A stretch of DNA of 46,701 nt from a virus (IMGVR_UViG_3300045988_115807); one strand, 5' to 3'. Shown: positions 21,192 to 31,471, counted from the stretch's first letter. The notes: a model not told the origin generated them from the sequence alone. Numbers and translations: made by a program.

Positions 21192-23093
21192 ATGAGCAAA
21201 GTAAAAATCGGTGAATTAATAAACTCACTTGTTAGCGATGTTGAGTCAATAGATAACTCTGACCGTCCTCAAGGGGAGAAAACAAAAAAAATAAAGGCTG
21301 TTGCATTAAAATTTAAAAATGCATTATTTAATGACAAGCGAAAGTTTAGGGGGAAAGGATTAGAAAAAAGAATTACAGCCAACACATTCAATGCCTATAT
21401 GAGCAGGGCCAGAAAACGGTTTGATGATAAACTTCATCATAGCTTTGAAAAAAATATACATCGCCTATCTGAAAAGTATCCTTTATATAATGAGGAGCTA
21501 TTGTCATGGCTTTCTCTACCTGCTGCCGATATTCGCCAGAGAATGTCAGCTTTACAGGCAAAATTAAAATTAATTCTCCCTCTATCAGAAGATTTATCTA
21601 ATATCAGAATTGGCGATAACAAAAGTCATAATAAGTTATTGAAATTATCAAATAAATATAAAGAGTGGCAATTCGCCATTTCTGATTTAACTAGCGATAA
21701 CTGGAAAGATAAGCGCGATTATTTATATAAATTACTACAGCAAGGATCTGCCTTACTTGAGGAGTTGAATCAGCTAAAAGTTAACCATGAGATTCTCTAT
21801 CATCTTCAACTAAGCCCTGCCGAACGTGCATCTATCCAGCAACGATGGGCGGACGTTCTGCACAATAAGAAACGTAACGTGGTGGTCATTGATTACCCTA
21901 AATATATGCAAGCTATTTACGATATTATAAATAGCCCTGCTACATTAAATAATCTAAACACTCGTTCAGGTATGGCTCCTTTGGCATTTGCACTTGCTGC
22001 ATTGTCAGGAAGACGAATGATTGAGATTATGTATCAAGGTACATTTACTGTTTCTGGTAAGTATACCGTTGATTTTTTAGGCCAAGCTAAAAAAAGAACT
22101 TCTGATAATATAACCAGAAAAATATATACATTATGCGAAGCAAAAACATTTGTTTATTTAATAAATGTACTTCGCTCATGCCCAGCAGCATCTGATTTTG
22201 ATGATGTCGTTAAAGGTTATGGAGATAACGACACACGCTCTGAAAACGGACGTATTAATGCCATATTAGCAAAGGCTTTTAACCCGTGGGTTAAATCATT
22301 TTTTAAAGATGACCGCCGTGTTTATAAAGATAGTCGTGCTATTTATGCCCGTATTGCGTATGAAATGTTTTTCCGCGTAGATCCTCGTTGGAAAAACGTA
22401 GATGAAGATGTTTTCTTTATGGAAATTTTAGGCCATGACGATGAAAACACTCAATTACACTATAAGCAATTCAAGCTGGCCAACTTCTCAAAGACATGGA
22501 GGCCAAATACTGGAAACGAAAATACCAGGCTGGAAGCATTGCAGCAGCTTGATGACGAAATGCCTGGATTCGCCAGAGGAGATGCCGGGGTTCGTCTGCA
22601 TAACACAGTTAAGCAGCTGGTAGAGCAGGACCCCTCTATAAAAATCACGAACAGCACTCTAAGAGCGTTCAAATTTAGCCCAACAATGATTAGTCGATAC
22701 CTGGAATTTGCTGCTGATGCTCTGGGGCAATTTGTTGGCGAAAACGGACAATGGCAACTGAAAATAGATACTCCAGAAATCGTTATGCCTGACGAAGAAG
22801 AACTGGAAGCAATACCTGAACTGGCGGATGAATTATCAGAGGATGACGATCTGGATGACGACGAAATTGAGATAGAGGAAGAGGAAGAGGAAGAGGAAGA
22901 TAGCGTAGAAGAACAGCAACCGCCTGCACCTTCTTCGCCTGTATCTAAGCCGGTATTTAAGCCGGTGAGAAATATTGGTGATGGCTCATACGTTGTTGAG
23001 TTTCATTATAATGGCCAGAATTATGCGTGGTCCGGCAGTGCAAACAGCCCCATGTCAGCAATGCAGTTAGCATGGCTGACATATTTCGGTTAA
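21192..23093 (+). CDS. telN: protelomerase TelN (telomere resolvase)
   Basis: 633 aa; MSKVKIGELINSLVSDVESIDNSDRPQGEKTKKIKA...RSGMAPLAFALAALSGRRMIEIM...HDDENTQLHYKQFKLANF... matches N15 TelN from memory; acidic Glu/Asp-rich C-terminal stretch. Confidence 0.95.
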   Translation: MSKVKIGELINSLVSDVESIDNSDRPQGEKTKKIKAVALKFKNALFNDKRKFRGKGLEKRITANTFNAYMSRARKRFDDKLHHSFEKNIHRLSEKYPLYNEELLSWLSLPAADIRQRMSALQAKLKLILPLSEDLSNIRIGDNKSHNKLLKLSNKYKEWQFAISDLTSDNWKDKRDYLYKLLQQGSALLEELNQLKVNHEILYHLQLSPAERASIQQRWADVLHNKKRNVVVIDYPKYMQAIYDIINSPATLNNLNTRSGMAPLAFALAALSGRRMIEIMYQGTFTVSGKYTVDFLGQAKKRTSDNITRKIYTLCEAKTFVYLINVLRSCPAASDFDDVVKGYGDNDTRSENGRINAILAKAFNPWVKSFFKDDRRVYKDSRAIYARIAYEMFFRVDPRWKNVDEDVFFMEILGHDDENTQLHYKQFKLANFSKTWRPNTGNENTRLEALQQLDDEMPGFARGDAGVRLHNTVKQLVEQDPSIKITNSTLRAFKFSPTMISRYLEFAADALGQFVGENGQWQLKIDTPEIVMPDEEELEAIPELADELSEDDDLDDDEIEIEEEEEEEEDSVEEQQPPAPSSPVSKPVFKPVRNIGDGSYVVEFHYNGQNYAWSGSANSPMSAMQLAWLTYFG

Positions 23094-23264: not shown

Positions 23265-24047
23265 CTATTTATTGGTGATTTCTGCTGGCTTTAGCTGCGC
23301 GGATAACTGCTCAAGTTTTTGAACTGCCAGTTCAAAATGCGCGGGTAACGCCTTTTCCAGATCAGAGTTAATATCGGTGATGGGTAAATCACCACACGAC
23401 ATACTCCGCCTACCCCCACGAACAACATCACGCAACAACTCTCGTTCATACGTGCGCATGTTCCCCAATGCCGACTCAGCAGCCGTCAAAATCCGGCGCA
23501 GTTCTGCCGTAATTGCTGGCAAATCATCAACCGTTATGGGGTTCGGGGATGGATTACGACACGCCCGACGCAAAGCTAACCATACACCGCTAATCCAGGC
23601 ATTTCGGTACTGAAAACTTTGTGCTATATCGTTAATCAGCCCTCGCAGATACTCTTTCTGCCTCCAGTTCAACGGCTCCGCTGCTCGCATTGGCTCAGGC
23701 TCGATGTAAACGTACTCTCCATTTTTGCGAATAGAGGGCAAGACTTCGTTCGTTACCCATTTGCGAAACCGCCAAGCTGTTGTGCCTTGCTTCACCGCGT
23801 CACGGCAGCGGAGGATCAGGGTGTATAGACCTGACTCTGAAATAATATTTAGCTTTTGCTCTCCGCCAGGGGTGTAACTTAAAGTTACACCCTTTTCATC
23901 CTCATCCAGAGACATTAGCGCCTTCCGGGAATTAACGAGTCTTAAAGCATCACATACATCCTTAGCCACAAACCACGGCTCACCGTTAATCATCACTACA
24001 CGAACCTGATGCTCTTCCTGAAAGGAAAAGACTGCTAACGCGCTCAT
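23265..24047 (-). CDS. Bro-N domain antirepressor-like protein
   Basis: N-terminal ...VRVVMINGEPWFVAKDVCDALRLVNSRKALMSLDEDEKG... is typical of Bro-N/AntA phage antirepressor domains. Confidence 0.8.
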   Translation of the reverse strand: MSALAVFSFQEEHQVRVVMINGEPWFVAKDVCDALRLVNSRKALMSLDEDEKGVTLSYTPGGEQKLNIISESGLYTLILRCRDAVKQGTTAWRFRKWVTNEVLPSIRKNGEYVYIEPEPMRAAEPLNWRQKEYLRGLINDIAQSFQYRNAWISGVWLALRRACRNPSPNPITVDDLPAITAELRRILTAAESALGNMRTYERELLRDVVRGGRRSMSCGDLPITDINSDLEKALPAHFELAVQKLEQLSAQLKPAEITNK

Positions 24048-24277
24048 TCAGCCTCCTTATCGCGCAGCAAGTGCGACGAGAGAGACGCAGAATATCCCTG
24101 TGCTTCATGCGTTAACTCACACGCAATCTGCAGAAGTTTTCCAGCCTCTGAGAGGTAAATCGACGCCTCACAACTGGAGACTGTCCGATGGGCTGATGAT
24201 ACGAGCGCATAGACCTGAGCCAGACGTTCATCCAACGATTCCAGCAGGCCAACAGTGTTCATTTTTACCTGATTCAT
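24044..24277 (-). CDS. hypothetical protein (77 aa), second gene of the antirepressor operon
   Basis: ATGA overlap with the downstream antirepressor and with the upstream small ORF, indicating translational coupling. Confidence 0.6.
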   Translation of the reverse strand: MNQVKMNTVGLLESLDERLAQVYALVSSAHRTVSSCEASIYLSEAGKLLQIACELTHEAQGYSASLSSHLLRDKEAE

Positions 24278-24438
24278 GCAGCCACCTCGCGCACCGGAAT
24301 ACGGGCAGACAATACCAGGACAAACCGGCTGGCGAACTGGCGACGAGCTTCCCGTTCAGATGACGCGATAGTGGAAAGATGATGAATGTGGGACTTTTTG
24401 TCTGTGCGAACGACTGCCGCAAATTTGAATTTGAACAT
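24274..24438 (-). CDS. small ORF (54 aa), first gene of the antirepressor operon, icd-like position
   Basis: Hand-translated: MFKFKFAAVVRTDKKSHIHHLSTIASSEREARRQFASRFVLVLSARIPVREVAA*; GGAG about 12 nt upstream; stop overlaps the next start. Below the ORF-track size cutoff. Confidence 0.45.
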   Translation of the reverse strand: MFKFKFAAVVRTDKKSHIHHLSTIASSEREARRQFASRFVLVLSARIPVREVAA

Positions 24439-24700
24439 GGTATGCACTCCGTTTTATTGGTCGTGCTACCACCAGAGTTGCGAATCTCTTTATTGGTGGT
24501 AGCCCAGGCGGGGTTCGCAATACCGGTAAACGAAGAAACCGGCCCGACCGAAGTCAGCCCCACCTGAGCCACCATAATTCGGATATGCGCAGGTCTATAC
24601 ACACAAAAAAACACGCTGGCGCGTGTTGTGCGCTTCGTTTTGCCAGGATTGCGAAGTCCCGACTGCGGGATTTACCGCAGCGAGGTGACTTTACCTCCAA
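24439..24700 (-). ncRNA. structured leader of the antirepressor operon; candidate C4/CA-type processed regulatory RNA
   Basis: Minus strand has TTGACG-18nt-TAAAGT promoter-like hexamers near 24700-24670, a hairpin plus U7 (ACACGCGCCAGCGTGTTTTTTT) near 24630-24606, and a 10-bp stem GCTACCACCA / TGGTGGTAGC just upstream of the small ORF's RBS. Confidence 0.3.
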
Positions 24701-24737
24701 AACGACGCACACGTCAATAATTTGCAAAGACATTTTA

Positions 24738-25631: not shown

Positions 25632-25720
25632 AATATTAACTTAACCTATTTGATTAATAATATGTTATTCCATTAAATAAAATATGCCGAGAACGGTTTA
25701 ACTTGAACAGTCATCACTAT

Positions 25721-26116
25721 TCAATCAACTTTTTTAGCATCAGCCATACGCTTCAACCAGTAATCAACAATCGGCTGCTCATCCACAGAATGTTTACCTG
25801 GTATAACTCGCCAGCTATCTTGCGAAAATCTGCCGTACTTACGCGGGAATAGGCCTTTCTTTATCTCCCGCCATGTACTAGGAAAACCATCCACAAAAGT
25901 ACCAATTAACAGGAGAGGGACAAAAATCAGAGCTACAAACCATCGTGCAAGAAAGTGTTCAACAACAACATTTTCACCGTTGTAGTAATACGCATACGCA
26001 TCCAATATGCGAATTTTCCTTACCTTAAAAATAGCCTTATGCTGAGAACGACTTAACTTGATACGAATGTATCCCTTATCCAAAGGGGATTCGTATTTGT
26101 ATGATTGAACAGCCAT
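25721..26116 (-). CDS. hypothetical membrane protein (132 aa)
   Basis: ORF with one hydrophobic segment (WFVALIFVPLLLIGTFV); start chosen at MAVQSYKY, 2 nt after the upstream stop. Confidence 0.55.
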   Translation of the reverse strand: MAVQSYKYESPLDKGYIRIKLSRSQHKAIFKVRKIRILDAYAYYYNGENVVVEHFLARWFVALIFVPLLLIGTFVDGFPSTWREIKKGLFPRKYGRFSQDSWRVIPGKHSVDEQPIVDYWLKRMADAKKVD

Positions 26117-26118
26117 TT

Positions 26119-26445
26119 TTAACCCCACTCACCATCAGCAAACAAAGCGTTATACTCTGACAATGGTAGACGGTTGCCCTCGATGTAGAGATTCAGTTCA
26201 TACTTCGTCTCCGGGTTTTCCTTGTCGGCTCGTTCCCAACGCTCAGCAGCCTTACGCGCCAATAATTCCACTGCTTTCAGATAATCCTCCGTACGGAACC
26301 AGCCAAAGATAAGGCCACGATCTGTTACAGCCCAGGCGACCTTTTTTTCTTCCTCCTGGATAGCCCTAATGCGTCGTTCGCATTCATCCCGGCAGAACTG
26401 CAGCTGACGGTAATCAAGTTTGTCCAAAAATGCAGTAGTAGACAT
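26119..26445 (-). CDS. hypothetical protein (108 aa)
   Basis: ORF tightly packed between the repA-distal small ORF and the membrane protein gene. Confidence 0.55.
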   Translation of the reverse strand: MSTTAFLDKLDYRQLQFCRDECERRIRAIQEEEKKVAWAVTDRGLIFGWFRTEDYLKAVELLARKAAERWERADKENPETKYELNLYIEGNRLPLSEYNALFADGEWG

Positions 26446-26449
26446 ATTT

Positions 26450-26641
26450 TTACTCCCCGTTCACCGAAAATTCACGATAGAAACGTTTCCACATACGATA
26501 AGTCTGCGCAAATTGTTCACCACGAAACATCGCCTTCCTGGCCTTCATGTTTTCCTTGTGAGACTTTCGGTCTATGAACCAAAACCATTGATGGAACACA
26601 CAAAGCAAGAGACACAAAGATAATATCCAATCATTACCCAT
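26450..26641 (-). CDS. small hydrophobic protein (63 aa) overlapping the repA stop
   Basis: Internal ATG of ORF 26450-26758 (MGNDWILSLCLLLCVFHQWFWF...), overlapping the repA 3' end by 8 nt. Confidence 0.35.
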   Translation of the reverse strand: MGNDWILSLCLLLCVFHQWFWFIDRKSHKENMKARKAMFRGEQFAQTYRMWKRFYREFSVNGE

Positions 26642-29600
26642 AGAAAGCGCCCTGCTCTTCGTAGCTGCATGAGCTATTCCCCGTAATGTATTCACGTAAC
26701 CGCCGCAGCTCATTGCTGGAAAGGTGATCCATGAACTCTGTGAGGTACAGGGATGCAAACGTCATAGCTATGCTGGCTGATGACCATGATGACATAGTGG
26801 CCAACTCCTCACTGGAAAGCGCACTCATCGCCCAGGACTCAGGTACAGCCACTGGCAACACGGCCAAAGCCTCAGAAATTACTGAATGAGGGGCGTTTTG
26901 AACCTGCTCGTTTGTGGATCGCGTTTTATCATCCATATATATATTGAGATCCAAATCGCGATCCATTTCGATGGCTGTCTTCTCGGCTTTACGCGTTTTT
27001 AGGGTTAGGCCATCTTTCTGACGCTGAACAAGAATATCCAGCATAAATGCCGCTGATTCAGGCTCAACAAAACGCAAGGTTGGACGCTTATCGCCGTCTC
27101 TGCCGCGACGTTTACCTGTTTTAAGGCCAAGAGAGTCGCAAATGTTTTTAAACAACGCTTCCGGCACTTTAGGCTTCCCTTTTGGCGTCATAAAACCACC
27201 AATGTGCAGAACGTTATTCAACAGGTCACGGCGTTCGGCTGTCATGAGGTTATCTCGAGCGAATTTGAGACGCTCCTGAGTCGCCTCGCCGGTCATAGTC
27301 TCAGGGTTGATACCGCAGTCGATAAAGTACTGCCGGAGAGTTGCTGATTTAAGCGCATAGAAACCGCGCGCCCCGACTTCAACAGTAGGAGTAGCTTTTA
27401 CCTTGTGATCGATTATTCCAGGGAATTTAGTTTTAAAGACATCATCAGCCTGCTCGCGAGTCATCGCGGTCACTACAAAATATTGCCACTGTCCCGCCTG
27501 ACGGTATGTGTAGGTAAAATTGATGGCTGCTTCTTCCCGGTCGTAACGACGAGCTGTTACCTCATCTAAAAGCATTGTTTCATAGCGGCGAACTTTGTCT
27601 CGAGCACCATCGAAATAGAATTTCAGCGTGCCTTCTTCAACCGGTAGTTTCAGTTCGTTTTCAATATCCCAGCGGACAAGTTTTGCCTGTTCTTCAAGCG
27701 TCAGCGCGCGTTTTTTTAGCAGTTCTTCACGCTCTGATTCTTGTGGTGTTTCTGTATTGAGGTGCAGATCCAGTGTCTGTTCCCACACAATATCCCGCGC
27801 TTCTTTACGCAGATCTTTACCGATATCATTCGCAGCATAATCGGTGGCCAGCGGTGATACCTTATAACCGTCGCTGTGCATGATGCAGATCATGTTGCTG
27901 GCGTAGTCGTTACGCGCAGTCGCTTCAATTGCGGCTGCTTTAATTTTCATCCTGGTAAAGTCGGTATTGGCCACCCCCATTGATATACGGTCGCCATCGA
28001 AAACGACATCCGTAAGTTCACCGTTCATACCTGCGGTAGCAAGCAATGCCTGGGCGAATGCTCGTTCTATTTTTTGCGGGTCAGTTTCACGTTTTGCACG
28101 AGCTTTATCAAAGCCGATAATAAATTCTTTTGCTGTACGGTCGCGGCGTAGCATTTGCACTGCATCACTGGGTACAACTTCACCACAGAACATGCCGAAA
28201 TGACGGTCAAAATGTTTTTGCTCAATCGACACGCCGGATGAAATAGACGGGCTATAAATCAGGCCGTCGTATTTTTTGACCATCTTTTTCGGTTGATTGG
28301 TAAATGCTTCAACTTCTGGCTCTGGTTTGTTTTTCTGGTTTACACACAGAAATTTCTTACCAGGAAAATGCATTCTCAGGGTGGCTGTCACATCTTCTGC
28401 AAAGGTGGAGCTGTCGGTGGCCAACATGATTTTTTCGCCATCCGATACAGCTTTCACCACCTCGGTCATGATGCGATCTTTTTCTGTATAAAAAACCCGG
28501 ATTGGCTCACCTGTTTCGCGGTTGCGAACATCAACAGGTAATTCAATTACGTGGATCTGCAGCCATGCCGGTAAACCTAGTTCTTCACGGCGTTTCATAG
28601 CCAGTTCAGCCAGGTCAACCAGCAGATCGTTCGCATCAGCATCCACCATGATTGGGTGTTGTTCCGTTCTGGCCAGCGCGTCAATTAGCGTATTGAATAC
28701 AGCCACCGGGTTTTCCATAGCCCGACCGGAAAGAACGGCACGTAGCCCTTGTGTGGCCTCGTCAAAGCCAAAATAGTCGTGCTGGCGCATCAACGGTTGC
28801 CAGCAGTTTTTAACAATCGAGTTTATGCAGATGGTCAGTTTACTGGCGTATGGAGCCATTTCCTGATAGCCAGGGTCCTGATAGTGCAGGATATCGGTTT
28901 TTACACCTTTTCCTTCTGTCATCATTTCCCACAGGCCACCAATAAGGGAAACACGGTGAGCAACAGAGATACCACGTTCTGAGCTATGCATTAAAGGTCG
29001 TAACAATCCAGTAGATTTGCCGGAACCCATACCAGCACGAACGATGACTATCCCCTGTAGTGATTGCACATACTTCAGGACGTCATCGGTCATTACCGAA
29101 GTTTCAAAACGCTTATAGGTGATATGTTGAGGACGTTTATTGGGATCAGTTATGCGTTCGCTGAATGAGCGCGGAGCCTGGGCAATACGGCACTTTTTAT
29201 TCAGGCGACGGGCAATGTGGTCTTTTACCGTAGCGCGATAGATATTTTCCAGCCCCATTTCACGCAGAACGATGCAGAACATGTTAAATAAGTCTGACGG
29301 ACTGTTAGGAACCGGACAGGTTAGCATGCCAATATCCACCGCTCTCAGCAGCTCTTTGGCAAAAGTACGACGGTTATCCCGCTTAATTGTCTTCAGGCGG
29401 TTGAGCGTCAGAGATAGCAAATCAGTGCCGGTTTTCAGGCGGTTTGCAGTTGCAAACAGTTGACGTGCTGTTTCACGAAGTCCACGCAGTTTGTGCAGGT
29501 CGTTGAAGTCACTGCACTCCATTTGCGGATCGTCTTCAAAAGTTGGATAGACGCAGCGGACATCGTTGAATTTCGATAAGATTTCATAGCCAGTCCGCAG

Positions 29601-30629
29601 GCCGGTATTCCCTTTTCCTTCTGTGGCTGATTTCCGGTCATTATCCAGTGCGCAGGTGATTTTTGCCGCCGGGTACATGTTTACCAGTTGTTCCACAACA
29701 TGAACCATGTTATTAGCGGATACAGCGACAACCACAGCGTCAAAGCGTTTATCTTTTTTCGTGGCAAGCCAGATGGATGCACCAGTAGCAAAACCTTCTG
29801 TAACAGCGATGTTTTGCGCCCCTTTTAGCTCACCGATAACAAAGCAGGCACCGACGAAATCGCCGCTGGTTACGGCGCTGGTCTGGTATTTTCCACCTTG
29901 TTTGTCGATTCGCTGCCAACCCACAATACGACCATCGTAACGACCGTCCAGGTGAGCCAGAGGGATAGCCATATACGTGGTTGGCCCCCTGCTCCATTTT
30001 GCGCTGTCGTGACTGGTCACGCGACGCACATCACACGAATTAAAAACGTCACGAATACCTTTTTTAATCGCATATGGCCATGAGCCGTCTTCTGCAGGAG
30101 CATGTTCCCACGCGCTGTGGAATGCCAGCCATCCCAGCAAACGTTCATGGTCCATTTGGTTGTTTTTCAGGTCATTAATTCGTTTTTGTTCTTCACGGCG
30201 ACGACGTGCTTCGGCCTGACGTTCTATTCTTGCCCGTTCTTCTTCCGGTTGTGCGACCACGGTCGCATTATTCCGTTGTTGCTCACGGCGATATTCAGAA
30301 AACAGGAAGGAGAAACCGCTCCATGAGCCAGCATCGCTGCCTTTATGGACGAAGTTAATGAACGGGTAATCAATCCCTTTGCTGTGTTCCAGCCGGGAGT
30401 AAATTTCTACGCGTCCTTTGAGGCTCTTTTCGAGAGCTTCTGGAGATGTTTTATTGTATGAAGAGTAACGCTCAACACCCCCGCGAGGGTTGAGTTGGAT
30501 GTTGTCGGAACAGGCAGACCAGTTGATACCAGCCATCTGTGCCAGCTCGGTTAGTTCATCCCGTGCTGCTTCAATTAGCGAGAACGGATCGCTGCCAAAG
30601 CGATCCGCATAGAAATCGTTTAATGTCAT
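26634..30629 (-). CDS. repA: replication protein RepA (primase-helicase, N15 RepA-like)
   Basis: 1331-aa ORF; contains Walker-A-like GMGSGKST; size and position next to cB match N15 repA, whose 3' part is reported to contain the replication origin. Confidence 0.9.
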   Translation of the reverse strand: MTLNDFYADRFGSDPFSLIEAARDELTELAQMAGINWSACSDNIQLNPRGGVERYSSYNKTSPEALEKSLKGRVEIYSRLEHSKGIDYPFINFVHKGSDAGSWSGFSFLFSEYRREQQRNNATVVAQPEEERARIERQAEARRRREEQKRINDLKNNQMDHERLLGWLAFHSAWEHAPAEDGSWPYAIKKGIRDVFNSCDVRRVTSHDSAKWSRGPTTYMAIPLAHLDGRYDGRIVGWQRIDKQGGKYQTSAVTSGDFVGACFVIGELKGAQNIAVTEGFATGASIWLATKKDKRFDAVVVAVSANNMVHVVEQLVNMYPAAKITCALDNDRKSATEGKGNTGLRTGYEILSKFNDVRCVYPTFEDDPQMECSDFNDLHKLRGLRETARQLFATANRLKTGTDLLSLTLNRLKTIKRDNRRTFAKELLRAVDIGMLTCPVPNSPSDLFNMFCIVLREMGLENIYRATVKDHIARRLNKKCRIAQAPRSFSERITDPNKRPQHITYKRFETSVMTDDVLKYVQSLQGIVIVRAGMGSGKSTGLLRPLMHSSERGISVAHRVSLIGGLWEMMTEGKGVKTDILHYQDPGYQEMAPYASKLTICINSIVKNCWQPLMRQHDYFGFDEATQGLRAVLSGRAMENPVAVFNTLIDALARTEQHPIMVDADANDLLVDLAELAMKRREELGLPAWLQIHVIELPVDVRNRETGEPIRVFYTEKDRIMTEVVKAVSDGEKIMLATDSSTFAEDVTATLRMHFPGKKFLCVNQKNKPEPEVEAFTNQPKKMVKKYDGLIYSPSISSGVSIEQKHFDRHFGMFCGEVVPSDAVQMLRRDRTAKEFIIGFDKARAKRETDPQKIERAFAQALLATAGMNGELTDVVFDGDRISMGVANTDFTRMKIKAAAIEATARNDYASNMICIMHSDGYKVSPLATDYAANDIGKDLRKEARDIVWEQTLDLHLNTETPQESEREELLKKRALTLEEQAKLVRWDIENELKLPVEEGTLKFYFDGARDKVRRYETMLLDEVTARRYDREEAAINFTYTYRQAGQWQYFVVTAMTREQADDVFKTKFPGIIDHKVKATPTVEVGARGFYALKSATLRQYFIDCGINPETMTGEATQERLKFARDNLMTAERRDLLNNVLHIGGFMTPKGKPKVPEALFKNICDSLGLKTGKRRGRDGDKRPTLRFVEPESAAFMLDILVQRQKDGLTLKTRKAEKTAIEMDRDLDLNIYMDDKTRSTNEQVQNAPHSVISEALAVLPVAVPESWAMSALSSEELATMSSWSSASIAMTFASLYLTEFMDHLSSNELRRLREYITGNSSCSYEEQGAFYG
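30250..30266. repeat. sopC-like centromere palindrome (copy within the repA 5' region, 17/18 match)
   Basis: GTGCGACCACGGTCGCA(T); same dyad as the other four copies. Confidence 0.55.
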
Positions 30630-30682
30630 TTTTTAGCCATTCCATGCGAATTATGTTTTTTCGGGTTGAAAAAATCCGCAGG

Positions 30683-30739
30683 AGCAGCCACAATAAACGC
30701 ATCTTGAATTGACGGAATCCGTCGCGTTACTGTGGCTGC
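30683..30739. promoter_or_regulatory. 13-bp inverted repeat pair in the repA promoter region
   Basis: GCAGCCACAATAA ...30 bp... TTACTGTGGCTGC (one mismatch), enclosing TTGAATTGACGG. Confidence 0.35.
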
Positions 30740-30752
30740 TTCCTGAAAAGGA

Positions 30753-30780
30753 CCCGAGTTTGCCGACTCGGGTTTTTTTT
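30753..30780 (+). terminator. strong hairpin plus T8 between repA and cB
   Basis: CCCGAGTTTGCCGACTCGGG followed by TTTTTTTT on the plus strand; on the minus strand the same hairpin is followed by only TTTT. Confidence 0.55.
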
Positions 30781-30874
30781 CGTCTTTTTTCTGCTGCTGT
30801 AACCTGAGTCAACCCACAGAACATATGCTCTGCATTAAACCAGATTTACAGCAAACAATAAACCCCGTATTAAG

Positions 30875-31471
30875 TCATCTACCCTCAACCATGAATGATT
30901 TGATCGTTCCGACTATTTGGTGAACAAATTCAAGATCGCTTTTCCTGAAGATGGCGCGTTGTGAATTTGTTCCGTCCAGATAGTAATTTTCATCATCAAA
31001 ACGGGCCAGGCGCTGGATGGTGATATTTCCTGCAGTATCACGAACCAGAACATCCTCGCCGGGAACCAGTTCCAGCGCAGAATCGACCAGGAGAAAATCG
31101 CCTGGCTGATAGTTTCCCTGCGCCAGATTGCTGATAGTTAACGCATAAACAGTATTGCGCTGGCTGATGAATGGCAGGAATCGCTCAGTATTTGGAACCT
31201 GTCCTGGCTTCCACTCTTCATCAGGTCCACTTTCAGTTGTGCCAATAACAGGAATGCGATCAGGGTCATATTCTGTCCCATACAGCACCCAATGCACTGG
31301 CTTGCGTAAGCACTTAGCCAGGGCAATACCTATCTCCAGTGACGGCATTACGTCGCCACGTTCTAAGTTTTGGACGCCTGCAATAGAGATATCGACAGCC
31401 TCAGCAACTTCTCGCAACGTCAGCTTCATCTCTAAACGGCGTGCTTTCAGTCGTTCGCCTCGTGTTTTCAT
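30875..31471 (-). CDS. cB: prophage repressor CB (HTH N-terminus, CI/LexA-like C-terminal domain)
   Basis: MKTRGERLKARRLEMKLTLREVAEAVDISIAGVQNLERGDVMPS... HTH_XRE-type N-terminus; divergent from cro; position as N15 cB. Confidence 0.85.
   Translation of the reverse strand: MKTRGERLKARRLEMKLTLREVAEAVDISIAGVQNLERGDVMPSLEIGIALAKCLRKPVHWVLYGTEYDPDRIPVIGTTESGPDEEWKPGQVPNTERFLPFISQRNTVYALTISNLAQGNYQPGDFLLVDSALELVPGEDVLVRDTAGNITIQRLARFDDENYYLDGTNSQRAIFRKSDLEFVHQIVGTIKSFMVEGR

Follow-up and report, generated by a model that had tools for sequence, protein, structure and literature searches.

Three small genes chained to repA in an N15-like phage-plasmid as probable exchangeable accessory cargo

Introduction

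Do small genes that are chained to a replication gene serve replication, or are they carried for other purposes? The question is raised by the window, i.e. the whole 46,701-nt stretch of viral DNA analysed here (IMGVR_UViG_3300045988_115807), which is an N15-like (Ravinvirus-type) linear phage-plasmid of the telomere type. Its repA gene, the counterpart of N15 gene 37, is labelled primase, "origin of replication binding" or CyRepA1 in relatives and is followed by three short ORFs for which a role in replication or plasmid maintenance had been proposed. Among deposited sequences, those most similar to the window at this locus come from Escherichia phage PhiR46_1 (97.8% identity) and from several E. 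coli plasmids.

Organization of the locus

The features of the region are listed in Table 1. Homologs of cB, cro and Q sit beyond repA. Inspection of the ORF listing and of the raw sequence bore out the prediction of three small co-oriented genes after repA, together with their junctions. ORF-1 overlaps repA by 8 nt, its ATG being embedded in the final repA codons TAT GGG TAA, and gaps of 4 nt and 2 nt separate ORF-1 from ORF-2 and ORF-2 from ORF-3, respectively. The predicted sizes of the first two products (63 and 108 aa) were right; the third has 131 and not 132 aa, since the 132 codons of ORF-3 include the stop. An alternative GTG start of ORF-3 at 26128 would extend the protein to 135 aa. 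Shine-Dalgarno-like motifs (GGGGAG, GGGG) lie within the final codons of the preceding genes, with GGGGAG at the end of ORF-1, ahead of ORF-2. The tightly chained block ends at the spacer that precedes the lipoprotein gene.

Table 1. Features of the window between the protelomerase gene and the cB repressor gene
Feature	Position	Strand	Basis or remark
Protelomerase gene	21192-23093	+	
Bro-N antirepressor operon	23265-24447	-	
Boundary of the cargo interval / start of the antirepressor immunity module	24492-24717	-	
Predicted lipoprotein gene, 270 aa	24819-25631	-	Lipobox-like N-terminus (LLLSGC); GC 0.33-0.38
AT-rich spacer between ORF-3 and the lipoprotein gene, 89 nt	25632-25720	-	GC down to ~0.32
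ORF-3 (W_131), 131 aa	25721-26116	-	ATG at 26116
ORF-2 (W_108), 108 aa	26119-26445	-	ORF listing and raw sequence
ORF-1 (W_63), 63 aa	26450-26641	-	ORF listing and raw sequence
repA, 1331 aa; N15-type primase/helicase/origin-binding gene, first of the operon	26634-30629	-	ORF listing
Control region upstream of repA and cB repressor gene (cB 30875-31471)	30630-31471	-	

At the far end of the interval, the boundary region contains a promoter-like site (24717-24688), an isrK-like leader (24606-24681) whose hairpin at 24627-24610 resembles a terminator, and a C4 antisense RNA (24492-24579). The Rfam scores of C4 (82.3 bits) and isrK (52.8 bits) both exceed the gathering scores. Both elements stand upstream of an antC-like gene and constitute the N15-type antirepressor immunity control region.

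Coding status

For all three ORFs, pN was far below pS in every comparison, even at saturated synonymous sites. Against diverged relatives, dN/dS came to about 0.09 in ORF-2, about 0.25 in ORF-3 and 0.26-0.35 in ORF-1. All three are kept as ORFs in other telomere phages, with lengths and start sites that are preserved between genera. Judging by this pattern of substitution and conservation, the three ORFs are real protein-coding genes under purifying selection. ORF-1 frequently lacks annotation because it overlaps repA; deposited N15-like plasmids often omit it and have only the repA feature under the match (PLSDB/RefSeq hits H82, H84 and H86).

Protein families and structure predictions

The statement of the original prediction that none of the three proteins matches a recognised family holds for ORF-1, which had no match in Pfam, PHROGs, PADLOC, NCBIfam or PDB. 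It does not hold for ORF-2 and ORF-3, which belong to PHROG 10878 (the N15 gp35 family) and PHROG 15458, both annotated as families of unknown function. The profile HMM and structure searches that had been proposed were run and returned only these PHROG matches and N15 gp35, with no significant fold match for ORF-2. No credible match was obtained for any of the three proteins in Pfam, NCBIfam or PADLOC, where no defence family reached E <= 1, and searches of PDB sequences with single sequences and with profiles gave nothing for the trio. As predicted, two of the proteins have a hydrophobic segment (ORF-1 and ORF-3) and ORF-2 has none. When ORF-1 and ORF-3 were considered as superinfection-exclusion membrane proteins of the T4 Imm/Sp, lambda SieB or HK97 gp15 type, each was found to have one predicted transmembrane segment and no sequence match to any named family.

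The single strong hydrophobic segment of ORF-1 spans residues 5-23. The charges of its flanks, -1 on the N-terminal side and +6 in the C-terminal tail, predict an N-out/C-in orientation, and ORF-1 is thus a predicted single-pass inner-membrane protein. The cytosolic tail is the conserved part and carries a basic/aromatic motif, G..A..YR.W..YR, with the alignment invariants G41, A45, Y48, R49, W51, Y55 and R56. Homologs of ORF-1 (W63-like proteins), 33-67% identical, were found in NAR688 and other telomere phages with the identical 8-nt overlap. The family was seen in telomere phages only. In four loci a mini-ORF lies between the W63-like and the gp35-like gene (L005, 5858-5992; L036, L040 and L042, 5859-5993); it is absent from the window, and its product is a very hydrophobic peptide (…MPPVKVVIITLLLLGVCQLIARTGFGIW).

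ORF-2 and N15 gp35 share 63.6% identity over 107 aa (E 9e-52 with BLAST against a small local database; tblastn to N15, E 1e-39), and ORF-2 matches PHROG 10878 over the full length of the profile (positions 1-104 of 104, E 2e-52). Identity to PY54 ORF35 is 33%, at an hhalign probability of 98.6%. The protein is soluble and mildly acidic (pI 5.0). Its AlphaFold2 model is confident (pLDDT 93) and displays an alpha/beta fold with the order alpha-alpha-beta-beta-alpha-alpha-beta-alpha, for which the fold search revealed no significant match. The top match of the model in the viral library BFVD was N15 Gp34 (TM 0.59, probability 0.90, E 0.2), whose gene adjoins gp35 in N15.

The gp35 family comprised 73 clusters in one search and 184 representatives in an exhaustive profile search. 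Distant gp35-like genes were found beside xis/int where an integrated prophage ends, in an island that also holds orphan methylases, an AcrVA2-like gene and a faint Lar-like match, in clusters with an RNA ligase, a kinase-like AAA_33 gene and a DNA ligase, and near methyltransferases, a PAPS reductase and an integrase. No RepA was present in any of these sampled contexts. In some family members of about 200 aa (P0087, P0096 and P0100), a fused domain of roughly 100 aa forms the N-terminal part; this domain had no Pfam or PHROG match, and one fused member (L053, 6001-6618) is located beside xis/int of an integrated prophage on a 422-kb contig.

Several small proteins encoded in the interval resemble gp35, namely N15 gp34 (L003), a 127-aa ORF (L005, L032 and L043), PY54 ORF33 and AUO37521 of YDC107_1. 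They share with gp35 a helix / beta-hairpin / helix / strand pattern and look like distant gp35 paralogs. gp34 and PY54 ORF33 fall in one PHROG (6018), and the profile comparisons of gp35 with p127 (34%) and of gp34 with p127 (14%) are suggestive only. In the case of YDC5404, an hhalign probability of 99.8% with gp35 was inflated by one gp35 sequence in the target alignment. Without that sequence it was 99.1% for the local gp35 family versus 39% for alignment A1, and paralogy of gp35 and YDC5404 appears likely, not certain.

ORF-3 is basic (pI 9.8) with a single predicted transmembrane segment at about residues 56-78. It matches PHROG 15458 over its full length (positions 1-131 of 131, E 1e-91), and its relatives (W131-like proteins) include those of P840, CF-SP1 and Isfahan, with hhalign probabilities of 97.7-99.9%. 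The AlphaFold2 model is unusable (pLDDT 42). In Salmonella phage CF-SP1 the W131-like gene is located between terminase and portal, and in Proteus phage Isfahan it follows a DNA polymerase gene; this distribution suggests a mobile accessory gene that is moron-like. Both ORF-3 and N15 gp33 have a single transmembrane segment and they seem mutually exclusive, and distant homology of the two was considered and rejected with an hhalign probability of 0.4%. Among the P840 transposon mutants, none was in the W131-like ORF32.

Variation of gene content between repA and the antirepressor module

We compared 49 telomere-phage loci from repA to the antirepressor module or to telN and found 25 different gene orders. 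Each trio gene was encountered without the other two. Behind the gp35-like gene, the loci carry combinations of W131-like, gp34, the 127-aa protein, gp33, ImmA/TelA, Spackle, lipoprotein and YDC5404-type genes, usually beginning a few nucleotides from the gp35 stop. Loci that lack gp35 include YDC107_1 (CP025712.1), which differs from the window here in having the order repA, gp36, W131, YDC5404, further P840, in which W131 is present, and 48ST307, where another first gene is followed by gp33, ImmA and TelA. The exact trio is present in a subset of E. coli/Shigella-type elements, e.g. PhiR46_1.

In PLSDB, tblastn detected TelN in 226 records, gp35-like proteins in 115, W63-like proteins in 78 and W131-like proteins in 47, which puts the three at about 51%, 35% and 21%, respectively, of the plasmids with TelN. 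Since a query as short as 63 aa lowers the sensitivity of tblastn, the counts are approximate. Each trio gene is thus missing from many telomere phage-plasmids, and a gp35-like gene from about half of those with TelN.

The position at the stop codon of repA behaves as a slot. It can hold a W63-like gene, gp36, a gene for a 96-aa protein (L037), one for a 98-aa protein (48ST307), or nothing; ORF-1 takes the place of N15 gp36, to which it has no relation. The W63-like, 96-aa and 98-aa proteins are mutually unrelated and nevertheless have in common an ATG inside the final "...FYG*" codons of RepA, unlike gp36, which starts after an 11-nt gap. The site of this start lies at 26634-26641 in the window, and the arrangement was also found in L005, L017, L023, L035-L037, L040, L042, L004 and L062. 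In L037, the 96-aa protein agrees with the NAR688-type protein in its first four residues (MANL) and diverges from there on, which suggests a recombination joint exactly at the start of the slot.

At the distal end, the lipoprotein gene accompanies the trio in only 3 of the 17 matching E. coli genomes. In PhiR46_1 and others it is replaced by a gene annotated as Spackle, and a copy with 59% identity follows gp33 in L019 and L020. The lipoprotein had no family or PDB match, and no PADLOC family at E <= 1. It is a further exchangeable cassette of the interval.

Transcription

The trio had been predicted to be co-transcribed with repA, which fits the anatomy of the locus. A scan of the minus strand from 31500, the start of the scanned stretch, to 24717 detected no sigma-70-like promoter. 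The scan for terminators gave no good candidate before 24627 and, inside the trio, one weak G-U-rich hairpin (26333-26312). Since the genes lie on the same strand with tight junctions, an overlap or 2-4 nt gaps with Shine-Dalgarno-like motifs, and no convincing promoter or terminator interrupts them, co-transcription of the trio with repA is probable and well supported by this arrangement.

The CB repressor is known to bind OL sites upstream of repA, thereby regulating copy number (PMC4488713). In the window, the sequence ahead of repA shows 89% identity to N15 over the stretch that is annotated as CB operator in N15. The cB-controlled repA operon would correspond to the leftward early operon, with a position comparable to that of the PL operon of lambda and with the trio at its promoter-distal end. 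Being chained to repA, the trio should be made whenever repA is transcribed, and cB and the upstream control region would set the timing. The expected pattern would be low expression in a lysogen and strong expression after infection or induction. In NAR688 lysogens, the counterparts of ORF-1 and ORF-2 went undetected by proteomics. The "gp35" that was detected by proteomics in the NAR688 paper follows the gene numbering of that paper, denotes a RelE/ParE toxin and is not the homolog of N15 gp35.

The trio as accessory cargo

In our view the trio consists of real genes in the distal part of a cB-controlled repA operon that form independently exchangeable accessory cargo, not a single functional unit, and do not belong to the replication machinery, a reading that we consider fairly probable. 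The ORF-1 cassette would provide a protein that is anchored in the membrane, carries a basic tail on the cytosolic side and is one of at least four unrelated occupants of the slot. The ORF-2 cassette would encode a strongly constrained soluble protein with family members in early or accessory regions of unrelated phages as well, and the ORF-3 cassette a single-pass membrane protein with a moron-like distribution. ORF-1 and ORF-3 might act in superinfection exclusion at the envelope level or in host modulation, and the gp35-like ORF-2 might bind a host or defence factor. Judged by neighbourhood and analogy, roles in exclusion, anti-defence or host takeover are plausible for the trio.

A precedent is given by the Klebsiella telomere phages, in which the same interval is a cargo locus with five telocin/immunity cassettes (TelA-E/ImmA-E), telocin-free phages existing too (PMC12042878). 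As the interval already yields bacteriocins in Klebsiella, its other, uncharacterised genes can reasonably be regarded as candidates for roles in exclusion, anti-defence or host modulation. In NAR688, the ImmA/TelA pair directly follows the homologs of ORF-1 and ORF-2, and tblastn with TelA and ImmA detected them in L004, L027, L029/30 and L037-39. The telocin locus resembles the locus of the window in lying between RepA and protelomerase and in being exchangeable between related phages. It differs in that the window has ORF-3 and the lipoprotein gene at the equivalent place, where tblastn found no TelA or ImmA homolog in the window.

Two further systems can be compared. N15 genes 33-36 and PY54 ORF33-35 share with the trio the strand and the place after repA, the tight packing and the lack of characterisation. 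In comparison to N15, however, ORF-1 replaces the unrelated gp36, and ORF-3, which is absent from N15, replaces gp34/gp33 without detectable homology to gp33. The PL operon of lambda carries the small accessory genes ral, sieB and kil. These, like morons, are small, non-essential and in part membrane proteins, encoded in a repressor-controlled leftward early operon, but the trio has no sequence similarity to them and its operon is headed by a plasmid replication gene instead of N.

A more far-reaching proposal, which we put forward as tentative, is that the gp35 family, with its confident fold without PDB relatives, its dN/dS of about 0.09 and its 184 clusters from temperate and other phages, constitutes a new and structurally unassigned class of early phage proteins directed against a conserved host factor or a defence system, which they would neutralise, and that the slot at the repA stop, the 63-aa membrane protein included, is a translationally coupled plug-in site for swapping host-interaction genes.

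Replication and plasmid maintenance

The role in replication or plasmid maintenance that was proposed for the trio on account of its coupling to repA is not supported, on five counts. First, according to the statements on replication taken from PMC10612081, circular replication needs repA only and linear replication needs repA, telN and telRL. Second, a tetA insertion at position 27,463 in ORF35 of PY54 (PY54-35Tc) gave a wild-type-like phage (PMC4488713); this gene (27304-27615) is a member of the gp35 family and, starting 15 nt after repA, the first gene to follow it. Third, the trio genes are only patchily present among telomere phage-plasmids. Fourth, homologs of the 108-aa and 131-aa proteins also occur in integrated prophages and in non-telomere phages, some apparently virulent, with RepA not nearby. 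Fifth, comparison of alignment A1 of gp35 with P4 ORF106 (Cnr) by hhalign gave no similarity (probability 0.4%, E 0.13), and membership of ORF-2 in the P4 Cnr/DUF5375 family was rejected. The literature and the absences from PLSDB thus speak against an essential part of the trio in replication or maintenance.

A weaker form of the proposal would make the three proteins non-essential modulators of RepA. The gp35-like protein would tune initiation or copy number as P4 Cnr does on alpha, and ORF-1, translationally coupled to repA, would tether RepA or the replicating DNA to the inner membrane, for which phi29 p16.7 offers a comparison. Cnr, a protein of about 106 aa, likewise shares its operon with a multidomain primase-helicase initiator (alpha); in contrast, cnr lies upstream of alpha and the gp35-like gene downstream of repA, and the disrupted PY54 homolog had no reported phenotype. 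Such a modulating function could account for the finding that, in every examined telomere-phage locus with a gp35-like gene, this gene follows repA either immediately or with one or two slot genes in between, an association that is conditional on the presence of gp35, for which the locus set was selected. This position is kept even in divergent loci (RepA C-terminus 34-55% identical), and in L045 the gp35-like gene is the sole marker gene between repA and telN. The strong constraint on gp35, the ATG of ORF-1 inside the final repA codons in all W63-type loci and the limitation of ORF-1 to telomere phages point in the same direction. On the other hand, replication by repA alone as stated in PMC10612081, the wild-type-like PY54 mutant, the lack of Cnr similarity, the gp35-family members in phages without RepA and the absence of gp35 from about half of the TelN plasmids and from YDC107_1, P840 and 48ST307 argue against modulators as well. 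Furthermore, identity of gp35 does not track identity of the RepA C-terminus (77% versus 34% in L032), and ORF-1 can be replaced by three unrelated proteins, two of them with the same start in the last codons of repA. Tight linkage in a shared early operon explains the proximity of gp35 and ORF-1 to repA equally well, and we regard modulators of RepA as unlikely.

Toxin or lysis-type module and chance frames

The trio could also be read as a membrane toxin/immunity or lysis-type module, in which ORF-1 and/or ORF-3 would be toxin- or holin-like and ORF-2 the antidote, as two small membrane proteins flank a soluble one and Klebsiella phages carry a real toxin-immunity pair in the same interval. 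Yet W131 is found without W63 or gp35, and gp35 without either; this independent assortment is a poor fit to an obligate toxin-antidote set. Together with the lack of TelA/ImmA similarity in the window and of any toxin match in PADLOC or Pfam, it renders such a module very improbable. Finally, the shortness of the ORFs, the missing annotation of ORF-1 in several database records and the NAR688 equivalents missed by mass spectrometry might suggest chance or decaying frames without a protein product, a notion of negligible probability against pN far below pS at saturated synonymous divergence in all three genes, lengths and starts preserved across genera, and the confident gp35 model.

Implications for telomere phage-plasmids

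With exchangeable cargo as the preferred reading, attention moves away from plasmid replication and towards the cargo that telomere phage-plasmids carry, and the interval from repA to the antirepressor module emerges as a probable combinatorial cassette site. The best single target for further work is the gp35 family, which is widespread and tightly constrained and has a confident model without a known fold relative. The comparison of loci also revealed two head-to-head inverted copies of the telN-repA region in each of several IMG/VR contigs (L008/L009, L024/L026, L029/L030, L038/L039 and L043/L044), which could have arisen by assembly through the hairpin telomere or represent replicative dimers.
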